A DNA stretch of 64,000 nucleotides from Candidatus Magasanikiibacteriota bacterium (GTDB taxonomy: Bacteria; Patescibacteriota; Patescibacteriia; Magasanikbacterales; GWA2-37-8). This document shows, piece after piece, positions 4,293 to 59,386 of this stretch. The notes beneath the pieces were generated by a model. The model searched no databases. It was given only the letters and a program-made list of their open reading frames with translations, and was not told where the DNA came from. The stretch is taken from positions 6,834 to 70,833 of the forward strand of contig JBKJTY010000032.1 in assembly GCA_046590235.1 (NCBI GenBank), in the 5' to 3' direction. The translations under genes and the position numbers were made by a program. Every line of letters starts with the position of its first letter. Positions within the stretch are counted from its first letter, which is position 1.

Positions 4293-4976
4293 TTATGCAG
4301 CTGCTGGAGCATTTTCTGCAGGTTGTGCTGCTACAGGAGCTGACTTCTTTGCAATCTTTAATTCACCAACACCTTGGATGATGAGTAAACCATTTTTACC
4401 ACCTGGAACTGCACCCTTAATGAGGAGTTCGTTAGTAGCTGGATCTACTGCAACAATTTCTAAATTTTTAACAGTAACGCGATCGCCACCCATACGGCCA
4501 GCCATACGCATACCTTTGAAAACGCGTTGCACACCACCGGCACCGATAGAACCTGGAGCACGGAGATCGTGTTTGTGACCGTGAGTTGCAGGAGCACCAC
4601 GGAAATGGTGACGCTTAACAACACCGGCAAAACCTTTACCTTTTGATGTACCGATAACTTCAACAACATCACCTGGGACAAATGTGTCTACAGTAATGAA
4701 GTCGCCGCGTTCGATACCATCAACTTTTTCCATACCGAATTCGCGCAAATCTTGCACGGCTTCGAGGCCTTTTACGTGACCAGCGTGAGGTTTACTCATG
4801 CGGAATTCACGCATTTCGCCAAAACCAACTTGGAGCGAAACTTGGTTATCTTTCGTTCCATCCTTTACTTGCGTGACCTGGCAAGGTCCTGCGAGAACTT
4901 TGGTAACTGGAATTACGTCACCGTTCTGGCCGAAAACTTGAGTCATGCCTACTTTTTTTCCGAGAATGAATTTCAT
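4293..4976 (-). CDS. rplC: 50S ribosomal protein L3
   Basis: MKFILGKKVGMTQVF matches L3 N-terminus; ORF-track start at 5027 is probably upstream of the real start. Confidence 0.9.
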   Translation of the reverse strand: MKFILGKKVGMTQVFGQNGDVIPVTKVLAGPCQVTQVKDGTKDNQVSLQVGFGEMREFRMSKPHAGHVKGLEAVQDLREFGMEKVDGIERGDFITVDTFVPGDVVEVIGTSKGKGFAGVVKRHHFRGAPATHGHKHDLRAPGSIGAGGVQRVFKGMRMAGRMGGDRVTVKNLEIVAVDPATNELLIKGAVPGGKNGLLIIQGVGELKIAKKSAPVAAQPAENAPAAA

Positions 4977-5029
4977 ACAAGTAATTAAATACATTGTTCC
5001 TACCCCGGGTTTTTCGTAAAGGAACACCT

Positions 5030-5290
5030 CAGCATCTTTGTAGAGATGTCCATCGGCGAATTACCGCGGTAGCTTTTCAATGTGAACAGACTCTTAATTC
5101 TACTTAACAAAAAACTAGAAGCGCTGACACTGAGAGAAACTCAGTCCTGACGCCTCTAGCCTTCCTCGACCGCCGAAGCTTAAGCGAAGGAGGTCCCATT
5201 GTAAGGGCACCTTGCTATAACTTGTTAGGTCACGTCAACAGAAACCTGCGACGCAGAATGGCTTTTTGTAGTAAAATGTTAAGTTAATTC
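5030..5290. ncRNA. Candidate structured RNA or leader in the unusually long rpsJ-rplC spacer (identity unresolved)
   Basis: ~400 nt non-coding gap inside a normally tight operon; 5040-5290 is GC-elevated with several imperfect helices (5126-5147 actgag/ctcagt; ccttcctcg...cgaaggagg; ctgcgacgcag); no ORF >=60 aa on the coding strand. Confidence 0.25.
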
Positions 5291-5434
5291 TCCTGAAAAT
5301 AAAGCTATCCGGTTTAAATGTTTTCTTGGCTAAGATTAGCCTAAGATCTTATTTACTGAAAAGCATTATTTTTACGTAGTTCGAGTATACCTCGTATCAA
5401 CGTATTTGTCAATACCTAGCCTAAAAGCTAGACA

Positions 5435-5782
5435 TTACATTTTGATTTCGATATCAACACCAGCTGGAAGGCTGAGACTCATCAATGCGTCAACACACTT
5501 TGGGTTAGCATTCATGATATCTACCAAACGCTTGTGGACGCGCATTTCGAACTGTTCACGAGCGTCTTTGTGGACGAAAGTAGAACGGTTAACAGTGAAT
5601 TTCACCTTTTCGGTTGGGAGTGGTACTGGACCAACTACCTGTGCGTCGTGGCGTGTAGCTGTTTCAACAATTGTCTTCGTTGCTTGGTCGATAATACGGT
5701 TATCGTAAGCGCGGATTTTGATGCGAATACGGCTGCCTGCTTCTTCTTTCTTGGTTTGGGTTGTTTTTGCTGCAGTAGACAT
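5435..5782 (-). CDS. rpsJ: 30S ribosomal protein S10
   Basis: [14 protein letters not shown]...[14 protein letters not shown] typical of S10. Confidence 0.95.
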
Positions 5783-5849: not shown

Positions 5850-7040
5850 TTATTTTGTAATTTTAACAACGACACCTGAACCAACTGTGCGTCCACCTTC
5901 GCGGATAGCAAAGTTCATCTTTTCTTCGATAGCAACTGGAACGATGAGTTTAACCTTGATAGACACGTTGTCACCAGGCATAACCATTTCAACACCAGCT
6001 GGGAGTTCGATTTCACCAGTTACATCAGTTGTGCGGATGTAGAACTGTGGTTTGTAACCCTTGAAGAAAGGTTTGTGGCGACCACCTTCGTCTTTTGTCA
6101 AAACGTAGATTTCACCATCAAATTCAGTGTGAGCTTTAGCAGTACCAGTCTTAGCTAAGACCATACCACGTTCAACTTCTTCTTTCTTTGTACCACGGAG
6201 CAAGATACCTGCGTTATCACCAGCTTGACCTTCTTTCAACTGTTTGTTGAACATTTCAATACCAGTAACGACAGTTTTCATGTTGTCTTCGCGGAGACCA
6301 ACGATTTCGATTTCGTCGTTGATTTTGATCATACCACGTTCGATACGACCTGTTACCACAGTACCACGGCCTTCAATAGAGAAGACATCTTCAACTGGCA
6401 TGAGGAAAGGTTTATCAGTAGCGCGAACTGGTTCTGGGATGAATTCATCACAAGCTTTCATGAGATCCAAAATTGGCTTGGAAGCTGCTTCATCAGTTGG
6501 GTTAGCCAACGCTTTTGAAGAAGAACCGCGGATAACTGGCACTTTGTCGCCAGGGAAGCCGTATTTAGTCAACAAATCACGAACTTCAGCCTCAACGAGG
6601 TCAATGAGTTCAGGGTCAGAAACCATGTCAACTTTGTTCAAGTAGACAACGATTGTAGGCACACCAACCTGTTTAGCAAGCAAGATGTGTTCGCGAGTCT
6701 GAGGCATAGGACCATCAGCTGCTGAAACAACGAGGATAGCACCGTCCATCTGAGCTGCACCAGTGATCATGTTTTTAACATAGTCAGCGTGGCCAGGACA
6801 GTCAACGTGTGCGTAGTGTCGCTTATCTGTTTCGTATTCTACGTGAGCGGTAGAAATGGTAATACCACGAGCTTTTGACTCAGGACTCTTGTCGAGACCA
6901 TCAACGCCAATATCTTTAGCACTGCCTCCGCGGGAGGAGAGCACTTTCAAGATAGCTGCGGTGGTAGTGGTTTTGCCGTGGTCGACGTGACCAATGGTAC
7001 CAATATTCACGTGTGGTTTGGACCGAATAAAATCAGCCAT
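5850..7040 (-). CDS. tuf: Elongation factor Tu
   Basis: [25 protein letters not shown]..., 396 aa, unmistakable EF-Tu. Confidence 0.97.
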
Positions 7041-7185: not shown

Positions 7186-7226
7186 GAGCTTACCCATGTG
7201 GACAAGCTGTGGGTTGAATACGTTTT

Positions 7227-7652
7227 TTACTCAACTGGTTCTAAATAAAACTTTTCCTCTTCACCATCGTTCGGTACGTCAGCCAAATTTTCTTCGTTTT
7301 CTTGGCGAACTACTGGCGTTTCTCTTACTTCTGGTAAAGGTTCTAAATGCGGTTCAGACTCAATGGTTGGCGCCTTCCCAGCATTTCCCACTTCCCCGAC
7401 TTCTGTCGGAACCTGTGGCATCACTTCCACTTTTGGCTCTTTTTCCTGCGTATCGATCAGATCATCGAGCACATAGTCATGCAGACTGTCGTCGTCGGAA
7501 TCTTTTGGATCGTCTTGAACACTAATCATATCCTCATACTGGTTGAGGTTCATCATCATGAAGACATCATCACTTTCCATATCCATCACAAAAGCCTTGT
7601 CCCCTGTCGCACGCATTACGCTGAGCATTCGTTGCAATTGTTTCTCGCGCAT
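7227..7652 (-). CDS. Hypothetical highly acidic protein (islet 1, gene D)
   Basis: 141 aa, D/E-rich (DDPKDSDDDSLHDYVLDDLID), no recognisable domain; higher GC than flanks. Confidence 0.6.
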   Translation of the reverse strand: MREKQLQRMLSVMRATGDKAFVMDMESDDVFMMMNLNQYEDMISVQDDPKDSDDDSLHDYVLDDLIDTQEKEPKVEVMPQVPTEVGEVGNAGKAPTIESEPHLEPLPEVRETPVVRQENEENLADVPNDGEEEKFYLEPVE

Positions 7653-7736
7653 ACCTCAAAAAATTAGTTTACAAGCCTCTTATAATTAACACATGTATTT
7701 CGTCCCGTCAATACAGAGACGAACAGCCGAACGCAA

Positions 7737-8054
7737 TTAATCGCGTTCGGCATTTTCCCCTTCTTGTAATAGTGTTGTTTCCTCCTTTTTTTCCTCTACC
7801 CAGAGTCCGCGCAATTTAAGCGCGATTAGAATAGTTTCCCACTCATGATACCAGGTCGCCTGATTAAACCTCGTTTGTTCCTCTTCCGGTGGAAGAAGGA
7901 CAAACATGAGTTTTATTTCAGCAGTCATTACGAGCCGATGACCGCTTTCCTCGTGCTTCATCGTGTACGGATCTATGCGGTAGGCAAAGGTCCACCCTGC
8001 TTGCATAAGCTTTATCCGAAACTCTCTGAACTGATCATTGAGCCTACGCCGCAT
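7737..8054 (-). CDS. Hypothetical protein (islet 1, gene C)
   Basis: 105 aa ORF, AGGAGG SD 6 nt upstream of ATG, GC-richer codon usage. Confidence 0.6.
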   Translation of the reverse strand: MRRRLNDQFREFRIKLMQAGWTFAYRIDPYTMKHEESGHRLVMTAEIKLMFVLLPPEEEQTRFNQATWYHEWETILIALKLRGLWVEEKKEETTLLQEGENAERD

Positions 8055-8147
8055 GACGTCCTCCTGGTGAGTGGTAAGCGTGGCATAATTTTACTCTTTT
8101 ATACTGCAAAGTCAATGTATAAAAGATAAAGCTGCAATCAAATTTTG

Positions 8148-8193
8148 TATAAAAAGAAAGCGACCCCGGTTCGTTGTAAGACGTACCGGGGTC
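8148..8193 (-). terminator. Rho-independent terminator after islet gene B
   Basis: minus strand gaccccgg-loop-ccggggtc followed by gctttctttttat. Confidence 0.6.
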
Positions 8194-8226
8194 GAATGTT
8201 CACTGACACTTCTTTAAGTGTGTTCG

Positions 8227-8634
8227 CTAATGCTTGGTTGGAGAAGTCGGGGTGAATCCACCAGGGATCCGCCCATCCTCGATGCCGAGCTCTTCATCGC
8301 TCGGACTGCCGAGAGGTGTGATCTCAATAGTCACGTCATCGGTGAACTTGAAGTTGAATGACAGAGTCAGGTATGGTCCCATTACCTCTGCCTTATCGAG
8401 CACGGTAAATTCATCGATCTTCACCAGACTCTTATTGATCTCGAGGCGTTCGGTGGCCCCATTGCCGAAGATGAAGTCGATCACCACATCGTCGGGCTTT
8501 TCGTCCGGTTGCGGCGCTGGCCAGCCGGTGATGGAAATTTTGATCTGCCTCTTGTCCTCGCTGAAGATGAAACCTTCGTTGCTACGAAACCATACAACGC
8601 GTCCGCCTTCAACACGAAAACGTGTTCCAATCAT
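8227..8634 (-). CDS. Hypothetical protein (islet 1, gene B)
   Basis: 135 aa; ~53% GC with GGC/CCG/CGC-rich codons unlike the ribosomal genes; AGGAGA SD. Confidence 0.65.
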   Translation of the reverse strand: MIGTRFRVEGGRVVWFRSNEGFIFSEDKRQIKISITGWPAPQPDEKPDDVVIDFIFGNGATERLEINKSLVKIDEFTVLDKAEVMGPYLTLSFNFKFTDDVTIEITPLGSPSDEELGIEDGRIPGGFTPTSPTKH

Positions 8635-8726
8635 ATTCTTCTCCTGTTTACAGTGAACCGAAAGCCCACAATGTTGGGGACCATCCCCGAGTTGTAGAGC
8701 TATCAGCGGCTGTAAAGGAACAGTGG

Positions 8727-8756
8727 ATTATACACCTTTTTAGCGCTTTTGTCAAG
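8727..8756 (-). promoter_or_regulatory. Consensus sigma70 promoter for islet gene B (cTTGACAaaag-17-TATAAT)
   Basis: minus strand cttgacaaaagcgctaaaaaggtgtataatcc. Confidence 0.55.
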
Positions 8757-8763
8757 ATATACA

Positions 8764-8800
8764 CCTAAAAATGAAGCGCCACGCAGGATGAGTGCGTGGC
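8764..8800 (-). terminator. Terminator after islet gene A
   Basis: minus strand gccacgcactcatcctgcgtggc followed by gcttcatttttagg. Confidence 0.5.
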
Positions 8801-9025
8801 TTAGTGCTTCACTGTGTGATGGGTGGACTTGCGGCGGGAACGTCTTACTCCTCGTTCATTTTTCGGTGAAGTAAACTTTTCCATCTCCTGGAAAAGTGCG
8901 AGCGTAGCCGCATGGCACGCAAGCTCTTCGTCACCGACTTCGAAAATCATGTCATCCAGGATTTTGGATCCGATAGTTGCAGCGTGCCTAAACGCTTTTA
9001 TTTTCCGAGCAGTACTCGTTTCCAT
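8801..9025 (-). CDS. Hypothetical small protein (islet 1, gene A)
   Basis: Start placed at METSTARK (ATG 9025) because AGGAGG lies 7 nt upstream; 74 aa; own TTGACG-17-TATGCT promoter at 9058-9086. Confidence 0.55.
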   Translation of the reverse strand: METSTARKIKAFRHAATIGSKILDDMIFEVGDEELACHAATLALFQEMEKFTSPKNERGVRRSRRKSTHHTVKH

Positions 9026-9084
9026 AAGGATCCTCCTTTCACAGTGAACGTATCTGGAGCATACCACGGGTTTTTAGAGACGTC

Positions 9085-9123
9085 AAAAAATAAAAAACAC
9101 TCCCGAGCGGGAGTGTTTTGTTT
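9085..9123 (-). terminator. Bidirectional hairpin terminator at fusA 3' end
   Basis: cactcccgagcgggagtg flanked by A-run and T-run. Confidence 0.65.
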
Positions 9124-9135
9124 GAACTGTAAAGA

Positions 9136-11211
9136 TTATTTTGTGCGACCTGCGATGATTTGCGCAGCAACGTTGTTTGGAACGTCTGCGTAATGATCGA
9201 ATTCCATAGAAGAGGAAGCGCGACCCTGAGACATGGAGCGCAAGTTGGTTACATAACCAAACATACTTGCGAGAGGGACCATAGCACGGACAACTTTCAT
9301 TGTACCGCGATCGGTCATTTCAAGGATTTGACCGCGTTTAGCATTCAAGTCACCGATCACATCACCCATGAATTGTTCTGGAGTCAAAACTTCAACTTTC
9401 ATGATAGGTTCCATGATAACTGGGTTTGCTTTTTTACAAGCAGCCTGGAAAGCCATTGAACCTGCCATTTTGAAGGCGATTTCAGAAGAGTCAACTTCGT
9501 GGTAGGAACCGTCGAAAACAGTTACCTTTAAGTCCACTACTGGGAAGCCAGCTTGGATACCGCGAGACAAACCTTCCTTAATACCTTTTTGAATAGCTGG
9601 GATAAATTCGCGAGGAACGACACCACCTTTAACTTCATCAACGAATTCAAATGGTGTACCTGGTTCAACTGGTTCAACTTTCAACCAGCAATGACCGTAT
9701 TGACCACGACCACCAGACTGTTTGACGTATTTACCTTCAGCTTCAGCAGCGACGCGAATAGTTTCTTTATACGCAACTTGAGGAGCACCGACGTTTACTT
9801 CAACCTTGAATTCACGCTTCATGCGATCAACCAAGATATCGAGGTGCAATTCACCCATACCAGAGATAATAGTCTGGAGCGTTTCTTCGTCAGTGTGGAT
9901 GTGGAAAGTCGGATCTTCTTCAGCCAATTTCTGCATAGCCATACCAATTCTTTCTTGGTCAGCTTTTGTCTTTGGCTCAATAGCCATTGAGATAACTGGT
10001 TCAGCAAAAGTTGGACGTTCCAAGATAATTGGATTTTCTTCAAAACACAATGTGTCACCGGTTGTAACTTCTTTCAAACCGATAGCAGCTGCGATTTCAC
10101 CAGCGTAAACTTCCTGTACATCTTCGCGGTTGTTAGCATGCATACGCACGATACGACCAAGACGTTCTTTAGTACCTTTACTGGAGTTGTAGACGTAACT
10201 ACCTGCAGTAACGACACCGGAATACACGCGGAAGAAAATAAGCTTACCAACGAATGGATCAGTAGCGATCTTAAACGCAAGCGCAGCAAAATGTTCTGTA
10301 TCAGAAACTTTTCGAACTTCTTCAGCTTCAGTGTCTGGGTTAGTACCTTTCAAAGCTGGAACATCCAACGGAGATGGCAAGTAATGCACGACGGAGTCCA
10401 ACATGAACTGCACGCCGATGTTGCCAAGCGCGGAACCACAGATGACAGGGTAAATAGTACCCTTGAGCACCATAGAGCGAATAGCTTTGCGAATTTCATC
10501 GACAGAAAATGATTTACCGTCGAGGAAACGTGCCATCATATCATCGTTTGCTTCTGCAACTTTTTCGATGAGTTTAGCACGGAATTCAGCAACCTGTTCT
10601 TTCATTTCTTCTGGGATTGGGAATTCAGTAATATTCTGACCCTTTTCACCATCGAATTTATAAGCTTTTTCTTCAATCAAATCAACTAACGCGCGGAATT
10701 CACTAGACTGACCAACTGGCAATTGGATTGCAACTGCGTCCTTAGTCAAACGTTCGTGAATAGAGGCGAGACACATAAAGAAGTCAGCGCCGAGTTTGTC
10801 CATTTTGTTGACGAAAGCAACGCGAGGCACGTTGTATTTATCAGCTTGGTGCCAAACAGTTTCAGATTGTGGTTCAACACCTTGAGAAGCGTCAAATACA
10901 GCAACCGCACCGTCGAGAACGCGAAGTGAACGTTCAACTTCAACAGTAAAGTCCACGTGACCTGGGGTATCGATCAAGTTAATGCGATGACCTTTCCAAA
11001 AACAAGTGGTGGCAGCAGAAGTGATAGTAATACCACGTTCTTGTTCCTGTTCCATCCAGTCCATGGTAGCTTCACCTTCGTGCACTTCACCGATTTTGTG
11101 TTTTTTACCGGTATAGAAAAGCACGCGTTCTGATGTGGTTGTTTTACCAGCATCGATGTGCGCCATGATACCGATATTGCGTGTTTTATCTAGGGGATAT
11201 TCACGAGGCAT
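9136..11211 (-). CDS. fusA: Elongation factor G
   Basis: [25 protein letters not shown]..., 691 aa. Confidence 0.97.
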
Positions 11212-11261
11212 AAATATAAATAGGAAAACCCGCCGTCGCTAAAGCTATGGCGGGCGAAGAA

Positions 11262-11738
11262 TTATTTCGCAAAGCGAGCAAAGTGAGCAAACGCTTTGTT
11301 AGCTTCCGCCATACGGTGCATGTCGTCGCGTTTTTTCATCGCGTCGCCGAGACCTTGGCTGGTTTCGAACAAGATTGTAGCTAATTTCTGGGCCATTGGC
11401 TGACCTTTCTTTGCGCGAGCTGCATCAATGATCCAGCGGAATGCAAGTGCATTCTGGCGGTCACCACGAACTGGCATAGGAACCTGGTAGTTAGCACCAC
11501 CAACGCGGCGGGAGCGAACTTCCATTTGTGGAGAAATAGTTTTGATAGCATCTTCGAATACTTTTACTGGATCTTTCTTAGCTGTTTCAGTAATGATATC
11601 GAAAGCACCGTAAACAACGGACTGTGCAGTAGCTTTCTTGCCTTTGCGCATAACGTTGTTGATGAGTTTTGCGACGAGAACGTTGCCAAATTTAGGATCT
11701 GGCTTGATGTCGCGTTTTTTTGCTTGTTTACCACGCAT
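11262..11738 (-). CDS. rpsG: 30S ribosomal protein S7
   Basis: KRDIKPDPKFGNVLVAKLINNVMRKGKK typical S7. Confidence 0.95.
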   Translation of the reverse strand: MRGKQAKKRDIKPDPKFGNVLVAKLINNVMRKGKKATAQSVVYGAFDIITETAKKDPVKVFEDAIKTISPQMEVRSRRVGGANYQVPMPVRGDRQNALAFRWIIDAARAKKGQPMAQKLATILFETSQGLGDAMKKRDDMHRMAEANKAFAHFARFAK

Positions 11739-11829: not shown

Positions 11830-12258
11830 TTATTTCTTAGCTGCCTTTGGACGCTTGTTGCCGTACAAAGAGCGGCCGCGACGACGAGCTGCGACACCCT
11901 GAGTATCATAGATACCACGAACAATGTGGTAACGCACACCTGGTAAATCTTTTACACGACCACCGCGGATGAGCACGATAGAGTGTTCCTGAAGGTTGTG
12001 ACCTTCACCAGGGATATAAGCGATAACTTCCATACCGTTGGAAAGGCGAACCTTTGCAACTTTACGTAAAGCGGAGTTAGGTTTCTTTGGGGTGGTTGTA
12101 TACACTTTTGTACAAACGCCACGCTTGAAACTACTACCTTTTGGGTAAATAGTGGTGCGGCGGTGCAAGTTATCAACCGTAAATTGCAAAGCTGGGGTCT
12201 TTGTTTTGCGGACCTTTGCCTTACGTGGTTTTTTGATCAACTGACTAAGTGTTGGCAT
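11830..12258 (-). CDS. rpsL: 30S ribosomal protein S12
   Basis: [13 protein letters not shown]...[11 protein letters not shown]... typical S12. Confidence 0.95.
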
Positions 12259-12497
12259 AGTCTAAATAATGAATAACTTCTTAATAATTTAATAGTTGTT
12301 TGGCTCTATAAAACATTGAAATCCGCATTAGGCGGATTTGCTACTCCATCGAAATTGTAAGTTCAAACTTGTACAATTACGGCTGAGTAACAAAACAAGA
12401 ACGGATTACTTAACTCAGCCACGAGCCCGCTTAGATAGCGGATTAGTTTTCGTTCTGGTGAAAAGTATACCCATCAATACATTTTTTGTCAATAGTA

Positions 12498-12526
12498 TTG
12501 ACTTCTGGCCCGATTAAGGCTATACT
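12498..12526 (+). promoter_or_regulatory. sigma70-like promoter TTGACT-17-TATACT for islet 2 gene 1
   Basis: ttgacttctggcccgattaaggctatact, followed by AAGGAG SD before ATG 12576. Confidence 0.5.
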
Positions 12527-12575: not shown

Positions 12576-13016
12576 ATGCGATTTGGTAAGCACATCAGTT
12601 CTGATCCTGGTCTTGTCCCTGACGGTGTCTCTGGCGTGACTGCAAGGATCAGGCGCACACCGCACTACGCTCCCCTTACGGAGGAAATGATTGAACGTCT
12701 CCCGTCCGGTACTTTCCTGGAACGAGTTCGAGCCTACTACGCCTTTCGCAAACTGAGCGTTCAGCTCTATTCGTTTGGCCATGACATCATTGGTGTCCGT
12801 AATAATAACAACGGCCGCAATGAAGTCCTGTTCGATCTGGCGCGGTGGCAGGTCAAGTACATCACCAAAGGTCCGAAGCAGGGAATTGGACGTTACGAAA
12901 ACCTGTCTGCGATGGGTGGTATGGGCGACGTCTTTGAATGTGCAAAACGGCAGATCGTGCCGCGTTCACGCACCAAGCACTGGAGCGAGAAGCATACGCT
13001 CATCGAGAACAACTAA
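12576..13016 (+). CDS. Hypothetical protein (islet 2, gene 1)
   Basis: 146 aa, strong SD, GC-rich relative to flanks, no recognised domain. Confidence 0.65.
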   Translation: MRFGKHISSDPGLVPDGVSGVTARIRRTPHYAPLTEEMIERLPSGTFLERVRAYYAFRKLSVQLYSFGHDIIGVRNNNNGRNEVLFDLARWQVKYITKGPKQGIGRYENLSAMGGMGDVFECAKRQIVPRSRTKHWSEKHTLIENN

Positions 13017-13156: not shown

Positions 13157-13513
13157 ATGGATGGTACGGGAACTCCCGAACGAGGACAACGAAGGTTTAG
13201 CAGTTTGGTCGTGTACGAACACGCGATGGGATTTATGATTGCGTTCTGGGTCACACGAGAGGATGTGTGGGATGATATCCCCCTCTACTCTCAACGAGAC
13301 GCCTATAACCGGCTCTGGAAGCTCTGGGCTGACGGGGAGGTGAGCATTTTTCAGTTCTATAAGCTTCACCCACTCATTGATTCGTCCGATCTTCCTGAGC
13401 AATCAAGAGACACGCTTGCGTGTTTCCTCAAGCGCACGAAACCGCTTATCGGACCGGGCGAATGCAACGCAGTTTCCCTGCGAGTCCAGCTGAACCCACG
13501 TCGGGCAGCTTAA
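13157..13513 (+). CDS. Hypothetical protein (islet 2, gene 2)
   Basis: 118 aa, AGGAGG SD 8 nt upstream, GC-rich. Confidence 0.6.
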   Translation: MDGTGTPERGQRRFSSLVVYEHAMGFMIAFWVTREDVWDDIPLYSQRDAYNRLWKLWADGEVSIFQFYKLHPLIDSSDLPEQSRDTLACFLKRTKPLIGPGECNAVSLRVQLNPRRAA

Positions 13514-28560: not shown

Positions 28561-28845
28561 ATGCAGCCGTTCGCACTGATCATTACGAAACCCGAACTGA
28601 TGCTGGTCACTAACCACCTTCCCACAACCCCCAACATGATCAAACCGATCGAAAAACTGGAGGTCGACGCCGACTGGGATGAGGCGGCCAAGTCTTACCT
28701 CGTTACCCCCGAAGTTTTTCTCGAGGCGCTCACGAAGATCAGCAAGACCGTTTCTGATTACTGGAACGGCATCCTGGCAAATTCGGGTATTGTGATTCTC
28801 ACCGTCCCCGAAAATGCCGCCTACCTTCCGATCGCTTATGCTTAG
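28561..28845 (+). CDS. Hypothetical protein (islet 3, gene 1)
   Basis: 94 aa, GC-rich, SD GAGGAG, no recognised domain. Confidence 0.55.
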   Translation: MQPFALIITKPELMLVTNHLPTTPNMIKPIEKLEVDADWDEAAKSYLVTPEVFLEALTKISKTVSDYWNGILANSGIVILTVPENAAYLPIAYA

Positions 28846-29933: not shown

Positions 29934-30011
29934 TGAACGTTTTGGCTTGAAGCTTTAGGGCTTTAGACCGGAACCGTTCACAACCACTTACCTGACCCTT
30001 GGAGGGCCGTC

Positions 30012-30488
30012 ATGCCGAAAAATTTTCGTTTGGTTACGACCGGCACTTTCATCTCTGGAGGAGTACTTCCGCGAGAAAAGATCAAGCTCGAAAAACTTCG
30101 CAAGTTCATTCTCCATGTGACGACATGGCTCTATGGCGGAGGCGCTCGTCACTACGAAATCGTCAAAGTGCTTTGCGGAGGAGTAGTGCGGGGCAGCACA
30201 TGTATTCTGCTCGGCAACATCAGGGCACCTTCGAACGTCATGGACCAGATGAGTTGTGATACTCTCTTGAAGATGCTCGATATGCTGCCCCACGACAAGG
30301 CCGTTGTGGTCGCAGACAGCGAGGTGTTCGAAGCGCTCGGCTACAAGCTTCAGCAGCTTTCGATCTACGAGATGACTCAACTCGCCGACGGCAAGTACGA
30401 TTTCACACCACTCGCCCTGAACGGTGAAGAGGTCAAGAAACCCAAACCCACTAGCAAAAGGAGGCAGAAGAAGCAGCGAGTGGCGTAA
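30012..30488 (+). CDS. Hypothetical basic-tailed protein (islet 4)
   Basis: 158 aa, GGAGGG SD 5 nt upstream, GC-rich, C-terminal KKPKPTSKRRQKKQR tail; preferred over overlapping minus-strand ORF. Confidence 0.6.
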   Translation: MPKNFRLVTTGTFISGGVLPREKIKLEKLRKFILHVTTWLYGGGARHYEIVKVLCGGVVRGSTCILLGNIRAPSNVMDQMSCDTLLKMLDMLPHDKAVVVADSEVFEALGYKLQQLSIYEMTQLADGKYDFTPLALNGEEVKKPKPTSKRRQKKQRVA

Positions 30489-30503
30489 TACCGGGTACAA
30501 TCG

Positions 30504-35981: not shown

Positions 35982-37424
35982 ATGACTAAACAACGGCCAG
36001 AGATTTCACTAGACCACAGCGAAGTAATTCCGTTTGAATCACCTACAGAGTCACATACTGACTTAGCACACGAGGTGAATCATCATTTAAACGCCAATGA
36101 ATCGGCGGCTGTTGGCTTACACGAACGAGCACTTAGCGCCATCAATAAACTCTCAAAAATGAAAGAAAGTGGTGACTTTGAGAATGGTGACAAATTGAAA
36201 GAAATTGAAGAAGAAATTGATAGTTTACTTGCTGAATTCAAGGCAAAAAATGCTGAACTTAACCGCAAGGTTGAAGTTGCTGAAACTCGTTTTAACGATG
36301 AGCCAGATGAAGCGATTGCCAATGAAGCTATCTTAAAAGAAGAAGAAGAATCATACGATGAGCCAAAGGATGCCGATAACATTGAAGCTTTTAGCTCTAA
36401 AAAGGAACTTGAAAATAAATTGGTTGATGAGGCAATGAAAGACTACCGCACTAAACGCACAGCTTCTGGTCGCGTACGACTCGAAAAATCTCTCGTCGAA
36501 CGAACAGAGCGTAAAAAGGCTGGCAAATCTTTTGATATTAACGTTGGCAAATTTAACAAAGAAATAGCTGAACACCACAAAAAGAAGCTGGCTGCTAAAA
36601 AAGCTTCTGACGTACCATGGAAAACTGATGACACGCTTATAACAAAAGACGCGTCACATGACGGTATGAGCGTAAGTGAAGCTGCGGCCCTTTATGAAGA
36701 TACTGACAGCACCTGGTCAAAAGCTCTATCTTCAAAGGATGTACCATGGGATACTGAAGAAAATACGAAGCCTGAAGCGTCGGTTTCAAAGACGCGCAAT
36801 AAAGCCGAAAAAGCTGACGACGAAAATGGTTTCACTGCTTACGGAGATGATTTCCAACAGCTCCCAAGCGCAAAAGAGAGATTTAAGGGATCTGCCTCAG
36901 AGAAAGCGGTAACTCCTACTCCTACCAAAAAAGAACGCACTGCATCCGCTGAAGAAATTCGTAAAGCTGAGATAGCCCTTGAGAAGAAAGAACAAGCCGC
37001 ACGCAAGACAGAACAGTCTATTATCGAAAACCTGCGTGGTCAAGATGTAAATACGATTAATTTCAAAGATAAAAAAGTTAAGAACGCTTTGGTTGATATT
37101 TTGCTTGAATATGACCATGTGTACCACCAGAGCCTTTCCAAGGCTATGCAGGAAGAAGGTACGCTTAACCCAAGAAACCCAGAGGCAATTGAAGCCGCAA
37201 TGACCGATTCTATCGAAACATTGATGGGTCGAGGTGTAGACTACAAACTGGCAGATGCTGCGATTCAGCATTATGGTGTTGCTACCGATTATTTCCCAAA
37301 AAGTGAATCTGAATACTCGCACTATTCATCCGCAGTTGAGGAGCGTACGCCTAAACCTCCAAAAAAGGAGAAAAAACCTGGCATTATAGCTAGATTCTTC
37401 AATAAACTGCTTGGCAAAGAATAG
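35982..37424 (+). CDS. Hypothetical Lys/Glu-rich, probably coiled-coil or disordered protein
   Basis: 480 aa low-complexity sequence, no catalytic motif recognised. Confidence 0.6.
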   Translation: MTKQRPEISLDHSEVIPFESPTESHTDLAHEVNHHLNANESAAVGLHERALSAINKLSKMKESGDFENGDKLKEIEEEIDSLLAEFKAKNAELNRKVEVAETRFNDEPDEAIANEAILKEEEESYDEPKDADNIEAFSSKKELENKLVDEAMKDYRTKRTASGRVRLEKSLVERTERKKAGKSFDINVGKFNKEIAEHHKKKLAAKKASDVPWKTDDTLITKDASHDGMSVSEAAALYEDTDSTWSKALSSKDVPWDTEENTKPEASVSKTRNKAEKADDENGFTAYGDDFQQLPSAKERFKGSASEKAVTPTPTKKERTASAEEIRKAEIALEKKEQAARKTEQSIIENLRGQDVNTINFKDKKVKNALVDILLEYDHVYHQSLSKAMQEEGTLNPRNPEAIEAAMTDSIETLMGRGVDYKLADAAIQHYGVATDYFPKSESEYSHYSSAVEERTPKPPKKEKKPGIIARFFNKLLGKE

Positions 37425-37522
37425 TATTTAAAAACTCTCCCGCTCGGGAGAGTTTTTGCTTTTTAAAGCATTTGGCAAACAGACACTTTTTTGCTACCAT
37501 GGGTTGAACTTAACTACCCTCT

Positions 37523-58574: not shown

Positions 58575-58603
58575 TTGACAAAAGAGCTTTTTTATGCTAT
58601 AAT
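58575..58603 (+). promoter_or_regulatory. Perfect consensus sigma70 promoter cTTGACAaaag-17-TATAAT
   Basis: cttgacaaaagagcttttttatgctataat. Confidence 0.6.
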
Positions 58604-58748
58604 TGCACGTTACAATATGCTTGTAATCAGGTATATTGTACTTGTTCTTTACAACGAACTTTGGTCCTTATAACGCCTACCCGGGCTTTGCAAGGACCGC
58701 AGTTCCCCACCCCCCCCATTTTGCGTCATCATGACGCGGAGTACCACC

Positions 58749-59240
58749 ATGAATTTCCTGAACTGGCTCTCGGACAAGTCGCAGGCTGGATCCAGCCTCA
58801 TGGGTCTGCTCATGATCCTCACGATCGGAGCTTGGCTCGTGTTTGATTTTTTTCCCGCCTTCGTTCATCACTTTTCCAAGAAGGAATTTGTGATCAAGGA
58901 GTACTTCCGAAACGCGCCCCTGAACTTTGCACTCGCGGTTGTTGCTGGCGCCTGGTTGCTCAGCGGAATCTTCATGACCATGGCGCTCAGCTGTTCTGAT
59001 GCCCACCGCTCAGATCCTCGGAATGCCTGCCAGAATATGCCCTCGGCGTATGTGATTGAGCGCGAAGGCTACCTCCGAAGCTTGCTCCACTACGCAGGCA
59101 GCATCCTCGCCTTCTTGGTCCTGACAGCCTTCTTGGTTGGCATGGCGTATCTTCTCTATTGGCTGTGCAAACAGGCAGTGAGACGCATGCTCAGCCCAGC
59201 CTGGCGCTATATTCGATCCTTCAAGCTGAAGGTGGGGTGA
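58749..59240 (+). CDS. Hypothetical membrane protein (islet 5)
   Basis: 4 predicted TM helices, GC-rich; GGAG SD before ATG 58749 (alternative ATG 58731); terminator hairpin 59247-59277. Confidence 0.55.
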   Translation: MNFLNWLSDKSQAGSSLMGLLMILTIGAWLVFDFFPAFVHHFSKKEFVIKEYFRNAPLNFALAVVAGAWLLSGIFMTMALSCSDAHRSDPRNACQNMPSAYVIEREGYLRSLLHYAGSILAFLVLTAFLVGMAYLLYWLCKQAVRRMLSPAWRYIRSFKLKVG

Positions 59241-59386
59241 AACACTGGGGTGTCGGTGGATTTTCCGTCGACACCCCGCAAGACCAGTTTTCTGAAATTA
59301 TTCAGGAAGCTGGTTTTTTATTTAACCATTGCCAAACCAAAGGAGCGTGCTATAATTACCGTGTTTACTAATCTACATGCTTATAT

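Follow-up and report, generated by a model that had tools for sequence, protein, structure and literature searches.

An apparently native gene and a probable slot for hypervariable cassettes between fusA and tuf in a Candidatus Magasanikiibacteriota bacterium

The stretch of DNA considered here (the window: 64,000 nucleotides of contig JBKJTY010000032.1, assembly GCA_046590235.1, from a Candidatus Magasanikiibacteriota bacterium) carries on its minus strand the str cluster, one of the most conserved gene orders in bacteria, and the subject of this study is the interval that separates fusA, which encodes EF-G, from tuf, which encodes EF-Tu. As reported in a preliminary description of the DNA, four small open reading frames (ORFs) of 74–141 amino acids lie in this interval; they are designated A to D in their minus-strand order, from fusA to tuf. 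That description took them to be a single foreign islet, but the comparisons reported below make it probable that the interval is composite, with D a native gene and A, B and C hypervariable accessory cassettes in a slot between fusA and D. The features of the locus are as follows, in coordinates of the whole window; labels such as L082 designate loci compared with it, L082, L083, L089 and L092 being from congeners.

11830–12258, minus strand: rpsL (ORF list)
11262–11738, minus strand: rpsG (ORF list)
9136–11211, minus strand: fusA (EF-G), an ORF of 691 amino acids, the upstream boundary of the interval
9094–9119, minus strand: intrinsic terminator of fusA, an 11-bp stem followed by a T run (terminator scan; kept in L082 and L089)
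9058–9086, minus strand: promoter of cassette A, TTGACG-17-TATGCT with a TG extension, 9/12 (promoter scan)
8801–9025, minus strand: gene A (ORF), 74 amino acids, basic, soluble
8778–8800, minus strand: terminator of A (terminator scan; kept in L082)
8727–8755, minus strand: promoter of the second slot (B), TTGACA-17-TATAAT, 12/12 consensus (promoter scan)
8648–8726, minus strand: structured 5′ leader hairpin of the second slot (RNA folding and alignment)
8227–8634, minus strand: gene B (ORF), 135 amino acids, acidic, predicted all-beta, GC3 (G+C content at third codon positions) 0.62
8161–8194, minus strand: terminator of B, an inverted repeat followed by a T run (inverted-repeat search and sequence)
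8088–8115, minus strand: promoter of C, TTGACT-16-TAAAAT, 10/12 (promoter scan)
7737–8054, minus strand: gene C (ORF), 105 amino acids, an orphan
7726–7751, minus strand: palindrome overlapping the stop codon of C, terminator-like, with a weak T run (inverted-repeat search)
7682–7711, minus strand: promoter of D, 9/12 (promoter scan; kept in L082, L083, L089 and L092)
7227–7652, minus strand: gene D (ORF), 141 amino acids
7157–7185, minus strand: promoter of tuf, TTGCCA-17-TATAAT with TG, 11/12 (promoter scan)
5850–7040, minus strand: tuf (EF-Tu), the downstream boundary of the interval and the constant neighbour of D

The genes rpsJ and rplC come after tuf on the minus strand, and an identical copy of fusA in the Logan assemblies carries recorded Pfam EF-G domains. 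A sigma-70-like site, scoring from 9/12 to 12/12, lies just upstream of each of A, B, C, D and tuf (the 8-kb region has 22 promoter-like sites, compared with 11.0 ± 3.5 in shuffled sequences), and a Shine-Dalgarno sequence can be read ahead of each of the four ORFs, so the earlier statement that each has its own promoter and ribosome-binding signal is borne out. The companion statement, that each also has its own hairpin terminator, holds for A and B, but the palindrome at C shows no clear T run and no terminator was detected for D. All four products are predicted to be soluble proteins with no hydrophobic segment, and direct scans of them against Pfam, PHROGs, NCBIfam and PADLOC gave no significant match, in agreement with the remark that they have no recognizable domains.

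The composition of the four genes was examined by tests of GC3 and codon usage in which length-matched windows were drawn from 36 long genes of the window, whose mean GC3, taken as that of the host, is about 0.37–0.38.

Gene A: GC3 0.50, p 0.027; codon-usage distance p 0.38
Gene B: GC3 0.62, p <0.0002; codon-usage distance p <0.0002
Gene C: GC3 0.50, p 0.011; codon-usage distance p 0.08
Gene D: GC3 0.45, p 0.056; codon-usage distance p 0.61
A–C pooled: GC3 0.55, p <0.0002; codon-usage distance p 0.04

B is clearly atypical, A and C are mildly so, and D is not atypical at all. A GC-richer codon usage, heavy in GGC, CCG and CGC, had been ascribed to the whole interval; the raised GC3 of A–C and an enrichment of CCG in the interval genes agree with this, but GGC and CGC are not enriched and the codon-usage distance is abnormal only in B. 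Across the genomes compared, genes of the slot have GC3 values of 0.44–0.86, as against about 0.38 for the host.

Further small GC3-rich ORFs are found elsewhere in the window, at 12576–13016, 13157–13513, 28561–28845, 29988–30500 / 30012–30488 and 58731–59240. The first two, both on the plus strand (146 amino acids, GC3 0.59, and 118 amino acids, GC3 0.56), are orphans that form singleton clusters, have no Pfam or PADLOC match and are flanked by the rpsL promoter on one side and a histidine-kinase gene on the other; a divergent pair of promoter-like sites is present at 12464–12492 (minus) and 12498–12526 (plus), the second of which precedes 12576–13016. The others have GC3 values of 0.57–0.71, and 58731–59240, a predicted membrane protein, is accompanied by a 12/12 promoter at 58575–58603 and a strong terminator at 59280–59317. 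GC-rich orphan units therefore seem to be scattered through this genome rather than unique to the fusA-tuf interval.

The content of the slot differs among congeners whose EF-G is 97% identical (89–92% at the nucleotide level).

Window: A, B and C between fusA and D
L082: A′ (74 amino acids, 35% identical to A), then ORFs of 126 and 134 amino acids
L089/L083: ORFs of 226 and 76 amino acids (GC3 of the latter 0.86)
L092: ORFs of 81 (partial) and 166 amino acids (GC3 of the latter 0.71)
L002, more distant: a weakly CYTH-like ORF of 267 amino acids and others

All of the slot proteins are singleton clusters. The sole known relative of A is A′, which occupies the same place in L082 and gives a ratio of nonsynonymous to synonymous substitution rates (dN/dS) of about 0.5 in comparison with A; pattern scans based on A and A′ in JGI metagenomes and IMG/VR, the only searches made with A singly, found no match. 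B matches only itself among 1.84 billion representatives, and C only itself among 5.8 billion proteins. A joined query of A, B, C and D also found nothing, but this query is unreliable, having missed a D relative of 83% identity, and separate searches were made with B, with C and with the D profile; scans of A–D in IMG/VR and of B in GTDB genomes found no close relative. Apart from the pair A and A′, only two faint similarities were seen among the slot proteins: B and the 134-residue ORF of L082 are weakly collinear (Smith-Waterman z 5.0, p about 9e-4), and the 166-residue protein of L092 shares a short C-terminal patch with the 76-residue protein of L083. No defence, anti-defence or toxin domain was detected in the slot proteins. 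C and its promoter follow the B terminator and precede the D promoter, and they have no counterpart in the aligned congeners; in L082, L089 and L092 the homologue of the B terminator abuts the D promoter, which shows C with its promoter to be an extra insertion private to the genome of the window.

The non-coding scaffold around this changing content is 80–95% identical among the congeners. The conserved blocks comprise the fusA terminator and the A promoter (the latter within a block 89% identical in L082), the last 27 nt of A together with its terminator (95% over 62 bp in L082), the 12/12 promoter with its leader of about 80 nt (80–83% identical in L083/L089 and L092, where it stands ahead of the 76- and 166-residue ORFs), the B terminator, homologous to the terminator directly before the D promoter in L082, L089 and L092, and the D promoter itself. 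The leader (8648–8726, minus strand; 1941–2020 in L089 and 340–416 in L092) precedes three unrelated ORFs and folds as a long hairpin of −34.4 kcal/mol (z −3.6), in which 5 of 29 predicted pairs have compensatory changes on both sides in a three-genome alignment. Rfam gave no match at E ≤ 1 over the interval, leader included, and JGI metagenomes and IMG/VR, when scanned for exact patterns of the leader, gave none either. In the window, the 5′ arm of the leader is predicted to be able to pair with the Shine-Dalgarno site of B. The possibility that the scaffold is a multicopy repeat, such as a miniature inverted-repeat transposable element, was rejected, as its intergenic pieces are single-copy in the window with one exception: the fusA terminator hairpin (9094–9119) has a 27-nt, 93%-identical look-alike at 37431–37457 (plus strand), following the ORF at 35982–37424.

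The edges of the variable segments are marked by two heptamers, TTCACTG on the left and CAGTGAA on the right, that are reverse complements of each other.

9042–9048, minus strand: left heptamer of cassette A (TTCACTG), 23 nt before the ATG; 9 bp as TTCACTGTG
8808–8814, minus strand: right heptamer of cassette A (CAGTGAA), within the final codons of the gene; 9 bp as CACAGTGAA
8651–8658 (heptamer 8651–8657), minus strand: left heptamer (G)TTCACTG of cassette B, at the 3′ end of the leader
8199–8205, minus strand: right heptamer of cassette B, CAGTGAA(C), the point at which the sequence becomes similar to the congeners again
L082: TTCACTG at 831, A′, CAGTGAA at 1062
L082: TTCACTG at 1150, ORFs of 126 and 134 amino acids, CAGTGAA at 2002
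L089: TTCACTG at 2012, ORF of 76 amino acids, CAGTGAA at 2295
L092: TTCACTG off the contig, ORF of 81 amino acids, CAGTGAA at 241
L092: TTCACTG at 408, ORF of 166 amino acids, CAGTGAA at 940

The repeat reaches 9 bp at A and 8 bp at B, and the right heptamer of A falls inside the 62-bp block shared with L082. On the gene strand of the slot, cassette edges are the only places at which the heptamers stand in any of the four genomes, and left and right alternate strictly; elsewhere in the window each is found about once per 10 kb per strand. In the slot that has the leader, similarity between genomes ends 2 nt past TTCACTG and starts again at CAGTGAA. In the mRNA, long-range pairing of the 5′ with the 3′ heptamer is predicted with a probability that runs from 0 to 1 according to the cassette, which counts neither for nor against pairing as the explanation of the repeat. 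The segments between cassettes, from CAGTGAA to the next TTCACTG, are 95–174 nt long and as single-stranded DNA pair only at their 7–8 bp ends, the remainder being terminator, promoter and leader structures. The left heptamer of A forms part of a palindrome, TTCAC-T-GTGAA (9039–9049, minus strand), located downstream of the −10 box of A and upstream of its Shine-Dalgarno site; this palindrome resembles an operator as well as two edge heptamers joined together.

Since genomes with 97% identity in EF-G differ in what they carry here, A–C appear from these comparisons to be accessory orphan genes of fast turnover, organized as autonomous transcription units and probably exchanged horizontally, and the earlier view that the interval contains horizontally acquired, autonomously expressed genes thus probably stands for these three, but not for D. 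Under this reading, the fusA/D junction would be a hot spot for insertion and replacement, and each cassette would be a monocistronic unit for one small soluble protein, in which the ORF is preceded by a promoter and a Shine-Dalgarno site of its own and followed by a terminator or a terminator-like palindrome. A and B would occupy two "sockets" furnished with conserved promoters, a structured leader, terminators and the 7–9 bp inverted repeat; the cargo between the edges would be exchanged wholesale, with C a further insertion. The raised GC3 of A–C and their lack of homologues suggest an origin in unsampled GC-richer donors or in a strongly recombining pool of cassettes. Since hypervariable cargo within conserved flanks is typical of loci for conflict and host interaction, we infer that A–C may be strain-specific factors of that kind and not housekeeping genes.

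The strongest competitor of exchange is that A–C are old residents that have diverged in place extremely fast, under diversifying selection and in the absence of transfer, until their orthology was eroded. The pair A and A′, homologous and of equal length and position, with 35% identity and a dN/dS of about 0.5, is what such a process might leave, and the collinearity of B with the 134-residue ORF and the C-terminal patch common to the L092 and L083 proteins could be read as its last traces. However, the number, length and order of the cargo genes differ between genomes (135 residues in the window; 76 in L089/L083; 166 in L092; 126 and 134 in L082), GC3 values of 0.6–0.86 would not be expected after long residence in a genome at 0.38, C and the 226-residue ORF have no counterpart whatever, and similarity breaks off and resumes at the heptamers and not at start and stop codons. 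Divergence in place is therefore judged distinctly unlikely as the explanation of the slot.

The position of D was examined in loci from across the bacteria. A scan of EF-G against GTDB species representatives gave as best match L002, a metagenome-assembled genome (MAG), at 81%, followed at 66–68% by Falkowbacteria, Moraniibacteriota and other Patescibacteria; at 90% identity fusA, tuf and A–D are each singleton clusters among about 15 billion proteins. The window thus belongs to a Patescibacteria lineage that has been little sampled. L002 has an EF-Tu 83% identical to that of the window and a D homologue, which tblastn of D retrieves, and even the −35 region of the tuf promoter is conserved in it. 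(L002 is labelled "uncultured Gammaproteobacteria bacterium", but the gene content of the locus indicates Patescibacteria and the label looks wrong.) In 80 loci, the gap between fusA and tuf is 24–260 bp outside the candidate phyla radiation (CPR) and 466–2,635 bp in Patescibacteria, so that the premise of a normally contiguous fusA-tuf, on which the idea of an inserted islet was built, fails in this phylum.

These gaps contain D-like ORFs, with which D aligns, in L002, L003, L004, L005 and L080, and such ORFs also stand between fusA and tuf in L084–L088 and in the congeners L082, L083, L089 and L092; the protein of the L080 type has 118 residues. Family members on long contigs have the order rpsL-rpsG-fusA-D-tuf-rpsJ, and in all 13 loci for which downstream sequence is available the next gene after D is tuf. 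It stays with tuf even where fusA is displaced: in L091, where the gene upstream of D encodes an FtsX-like permease, and in L006, a Moraniibacteriota MAG in which 3.4 kb of unrelated genes (8254–11417) lie between fusA and the D homologue. The L006 stretch encodes an acidic 204-residue ORF, a 532-residue membrane protein and a 241-residue ORF that, judged by eye, resembles a family-2 glycosyltransferase; insertion at the fusA/D junction is thus not confined to the lineage of the window. Patescibacteria without A–C keep D, with a D-tuf spacer of 120–360 bp. A family profile hidden Markov model applied to all ORFs of 89 sequences (88 loci and the window) matched in Patescibacteria loci only, with no family member in about 70 non-CPR loci. 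A protein search with a profile of six D-like sequences yielded 960 proteins at E ≤ 0.001, all unnamed or "hypothetical protein", the named sources being Falkowbacteria, Parcubacteria, "Patescibacteria group" or an unclassified "bacterium", and full-text searches of the literature found no description of a D gene ahead of tuf in Patescibacteria. In three pairwise comparisons of the window and two congeners, the dN/dS of D is 0.08–0.09.

Given the same position across the phylum, a host-like composition and purifying selection, D appears to be a native, old and selected syntenic gene; the str cluster would be natively fusA-D-tuf in Patescibacteria, with its split ancestral to the phylum. In the native layout, fusA would end in a terminator, and D and tuf would each have a promoter of their own. 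The fusA terminator and tuf promoter noted earlier are both real, but since D is native they are not results of a recent insertion. Comparison of the junction in relatives, the check proposed with the preliminary description, thus shows D constant and the slot variable: relatives carry D at the same place, and its composition is host-like, whereas the content corresponding to A–C differs even among congeners.

It is consequently very improbable that all four genes form one islet, of the kind of a phage moron, that has split a contiguous fusA-tuf pair, the fusA terminator and tuf promoter being gained afterwards. The promoters of the individual genes, the terminators of A and B, the raised GC3 of A–C and the empty domain scans would all fit such an islet, but D has been in place phylum-wide with a dN/dS of about 0.09, Patescibacteria that have no A–C retain it, and A–C turn over independently of it. 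The likening to phage moron cassettes also finds no footing: there was no PHROG match and none in IMG/VR, blastn with the complete interval found none among the INPHARED phages, the window has no tRNA gene, and the interval has no flanking direct repeats and no integrase ORF.

Still less probable is the view that A–C are non-coding, their ORFs being chance frames in a long regulatory or RNA-encoding spacer. Such a view could appeal to the lack of homologues of B and C, to an AlphaFold2 model of B from its single sequence so low in confidence (predicted local distance difference test, pLDDT, 47) that it was not used for a fold search, and to the presence of a structured, covarying leader RNA. 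Against it, the ORFs are framed by a promoter and a correctly spaced Shine-Dalgarno site, and in A and B also by a terminator; A has a homologue of the same length with a dN/dS below 1; GC1 exceeds GC2 and GC3 is raised, as is typical of coding sequence; and independent gene callers predicted the same ORFs. That foreign reads were joined between fusA and tuf during assembly, a suspicion to which the atypical composition and an organism known only from metagenomes might lend colour, has negligible probability, because an independent Logan assembly of SRR31159418 is 100% identical over a 6,994-bp contig that runs from upstream of rpsL into tuf across both junctions, and in three other samples the junctions on the fusA side and the D side recur, with other cargo between them.

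The proteins of the D family share an N-terminal block, KKTGDRIIVFD…VVMSLDEYEKL (pattern …KKTGDR.IV.D…V.M.L.EYE.L), an acidic, low-complexity linker in the middle region and an acidic/aromatic C-terminal motif, EEDRQYLEDVxF or EEEKFYLEPVE, that is present throughout the match list. D ends in …NDGEEEKFYLEPVE, which carries the family motif (EEKFYLEPVE). A near-invariant central helix of the family, LTEDELLDKINRDIAIWK, is represented in D and its congeners only by the degenerate form SLHDYVLDDLIDTQ. A weak match of this helix to the WH2 repeats of N-WASP (E = 0.018) was considered and set aside as most likely a chance resemblance between amphipathic helices. The Phd/YefM family PF02604 is matched by 38 of 49 family members, with a best E-value of 1.4e-7, and the family profile matches Escherichia coli YefM (2a6q) weakly, at E = 0.55. 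An AlphaFold2 model of D made with the family alignment contains a helix (residues 2–16), two strands (19–23 and 31–35) and a second helix (36–44), with pLDDT of about 80–87, the rest of the model beyond this alpha-beta-beta-alpha N-domain being disordered. No toxin gene, such as Doc or YoeB, adjoins D: the downstream gene is always tuf, and cassettes, fusA or other genes lie upstream.

By analogy, D might act like a toxin-less Phd/YefM protein, a suggestion made with low confidence, in which a dimeric DNA-binding module would be joined to a disordered tail that docks on a partner. The most economical partner would be EF-Tu or another translation GTPase, through which the expression of the D-tuf unit or the activity of EF-Tu could be tied to D. 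Regulation of the D-tuf unit by D, or binding of D to EF-Tu or to a GTPase related to it, is suggested by tuf being the only constant neighbour of D, and we hold this as a tentative possibility, somewhat doubtful as matters stand.

The boundaries of the cassettes raise a further possibility. Site-specific exchange is hinted at by the alternating heptamers and is a live hypothesis, not a result. In its full form, the fusA/D junction would be an undescribed cassette-exchange platform, in which orphans bounded by TTCACTG…CAGTGAA are swapped site-specifically into expression sockets, in which a consensus promoter is accompanied by a covarying leader hairpin and a terminator that is conserved, beside a toxin-less Phd/YefM-like gene coupled to EF-Tu. 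This combined proposal we regard as unlikely.

It should be recognized that several points weigh against the composite reading or its extensions. The congeners are represented by short Logan contigs from a handful of samples, and neither a cassette donor, nor a recombinase, nor an empty site was found; scanning of 20 ORFs at 13.5–37.4 kb of the window revealed no recombinase. The repeat is short, C in the window and the 226-residue ORF of L089 have no heptamers, and in L082 and L092 a piece of the scaffold, either the promoter or the slot-1 terminator, is different as well. A compositional deviation beyond doubt is seen in B only. D itself is too diverged to match PF02604, and Foldseek with its model, whose folded part is only about 45 residues, gave no significant match, YefM ranking 30th. 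The idea of an EF-Tu partner comes from gene adjacency only, and the functions proposed for all four genes, A–D, are ones that we infer.

Two further features of the neighbouring genes may be recorded. The spacer between rpsJ and rplC (4973–5435, minus strand; about 400–460 nt) contains no ORF and has no Rfam match, and it includes an 11/12 promoter (5412–5384) and a terminator-like hairpin; a spacer of 277–500 bp is also present at this place in L084, L086 and L088, and it could be a leader/attenuator or encode a small RNA. Ribosomal protein L23 (3203–3637, minus strand) has an N-terminal extension of about 50 residues that is rich in Ala and Lys.

If the composite reading is correct, the sampled Patescibacteria (Saccharibacteria, Falkowbacteria, Parcubacteria and others) possess an extra, strongly conserved antitoxin-like gene before tuf, which suggests that in these organisms, whose genomes are reduced and whose ribosomes are unusual, EF-Tu is subject to control or protection at a level particular to the lineage. 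The slot adjoining it would be a single address at which small orphan genes are exchanged within a conserved regulatory scaffold and inverted-repeat edges and, if the exchange is site-specific, a new route by which episymbionts diversify accessory functions. The locus also carries a caution, in that a gap in a supposedly universal operon is not itself proof of foreign insertion, and synteny within the phylum should be consulted first.

The D family resembles the Phd/YefM antitoxins (PF02604) in its alpha-beta-beta-alpha N-domain and in the disorder of its C-terminal part, which has a conserved helix and a motif at its end. In antitoxins of this kind the C-terminal region binds the toxin, as the C-terminal domain of Phd binds Doc, and Doc, which Phd neutralizes, inactivates EF-Tu by phosphorylation (PMC9207808). 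The link between Doc and EF-Tu is a curiosity here, as no connection of it to the D family was seen. The family differs from Phd/YefM pairs in having tuf and no toxin gene beside it and, unlike mobile toxin-antitoxin pairs, it is single-copy, syntenic throughout the phylum and under purifying selection.

The slot recalls integron cassettes and clusters of attC sites lacking integron-integrases (CALINs) in its small, mostly orphan ORFs of one orientation with short inverted-repeat edges, and in the exchange of cargo on a conserved platform. The integron core site is GTTRRRY and the inverse core RYYYAAC; the sequences at the corresponding positions 5′ and 3′ of the ORF, GTTCACT and AGTGAAC, depart from the consensus at 2 of 7 positions. 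In addition, there is no intI gene at the locus, which is bounded by fusA and D-tuf, and A–C, unlike integron cassettes, carry or sit behind promoters and terminators of their own. Sites of the attC type are imperfect hairpins of 57–141 nt with R″-L″ / L′-R′ boxes (PMC2727003, PMC3053210), whereas the inter-cassette segments, at 95–174 nt, do not fold as canonical R/L-box hairpins. The dif (pdif) modules of Acinetobacter plasmids, in which accessory genes with recombination sites on either side are moved from backbone to backbone (PMC6449649, PMC13141974), are similar in being discrete modules with sites at their edges, but those sites are 28-bp XerC/XerD sites, whereas the repeats described here are 7–9 bp of complementarity with mismatched flanks and no dif-like arms, and the present locus is chromosomal, within a cluster of translation-factor genes. 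Like phage morons, A and B are autonomous promoter-gene-terminator units of atypical composition; unlike them, they lie among core translation genes and not in a prophage, and have no phage homologues. Taken as a whole, the locus appears to combine known kinds of element, a toxin-less Phd/YefM-domain family fixed in a core operon and a hot spot for accessory genes, and the cassettes bounded by inverted repeats could be the potentially new part of the finding.

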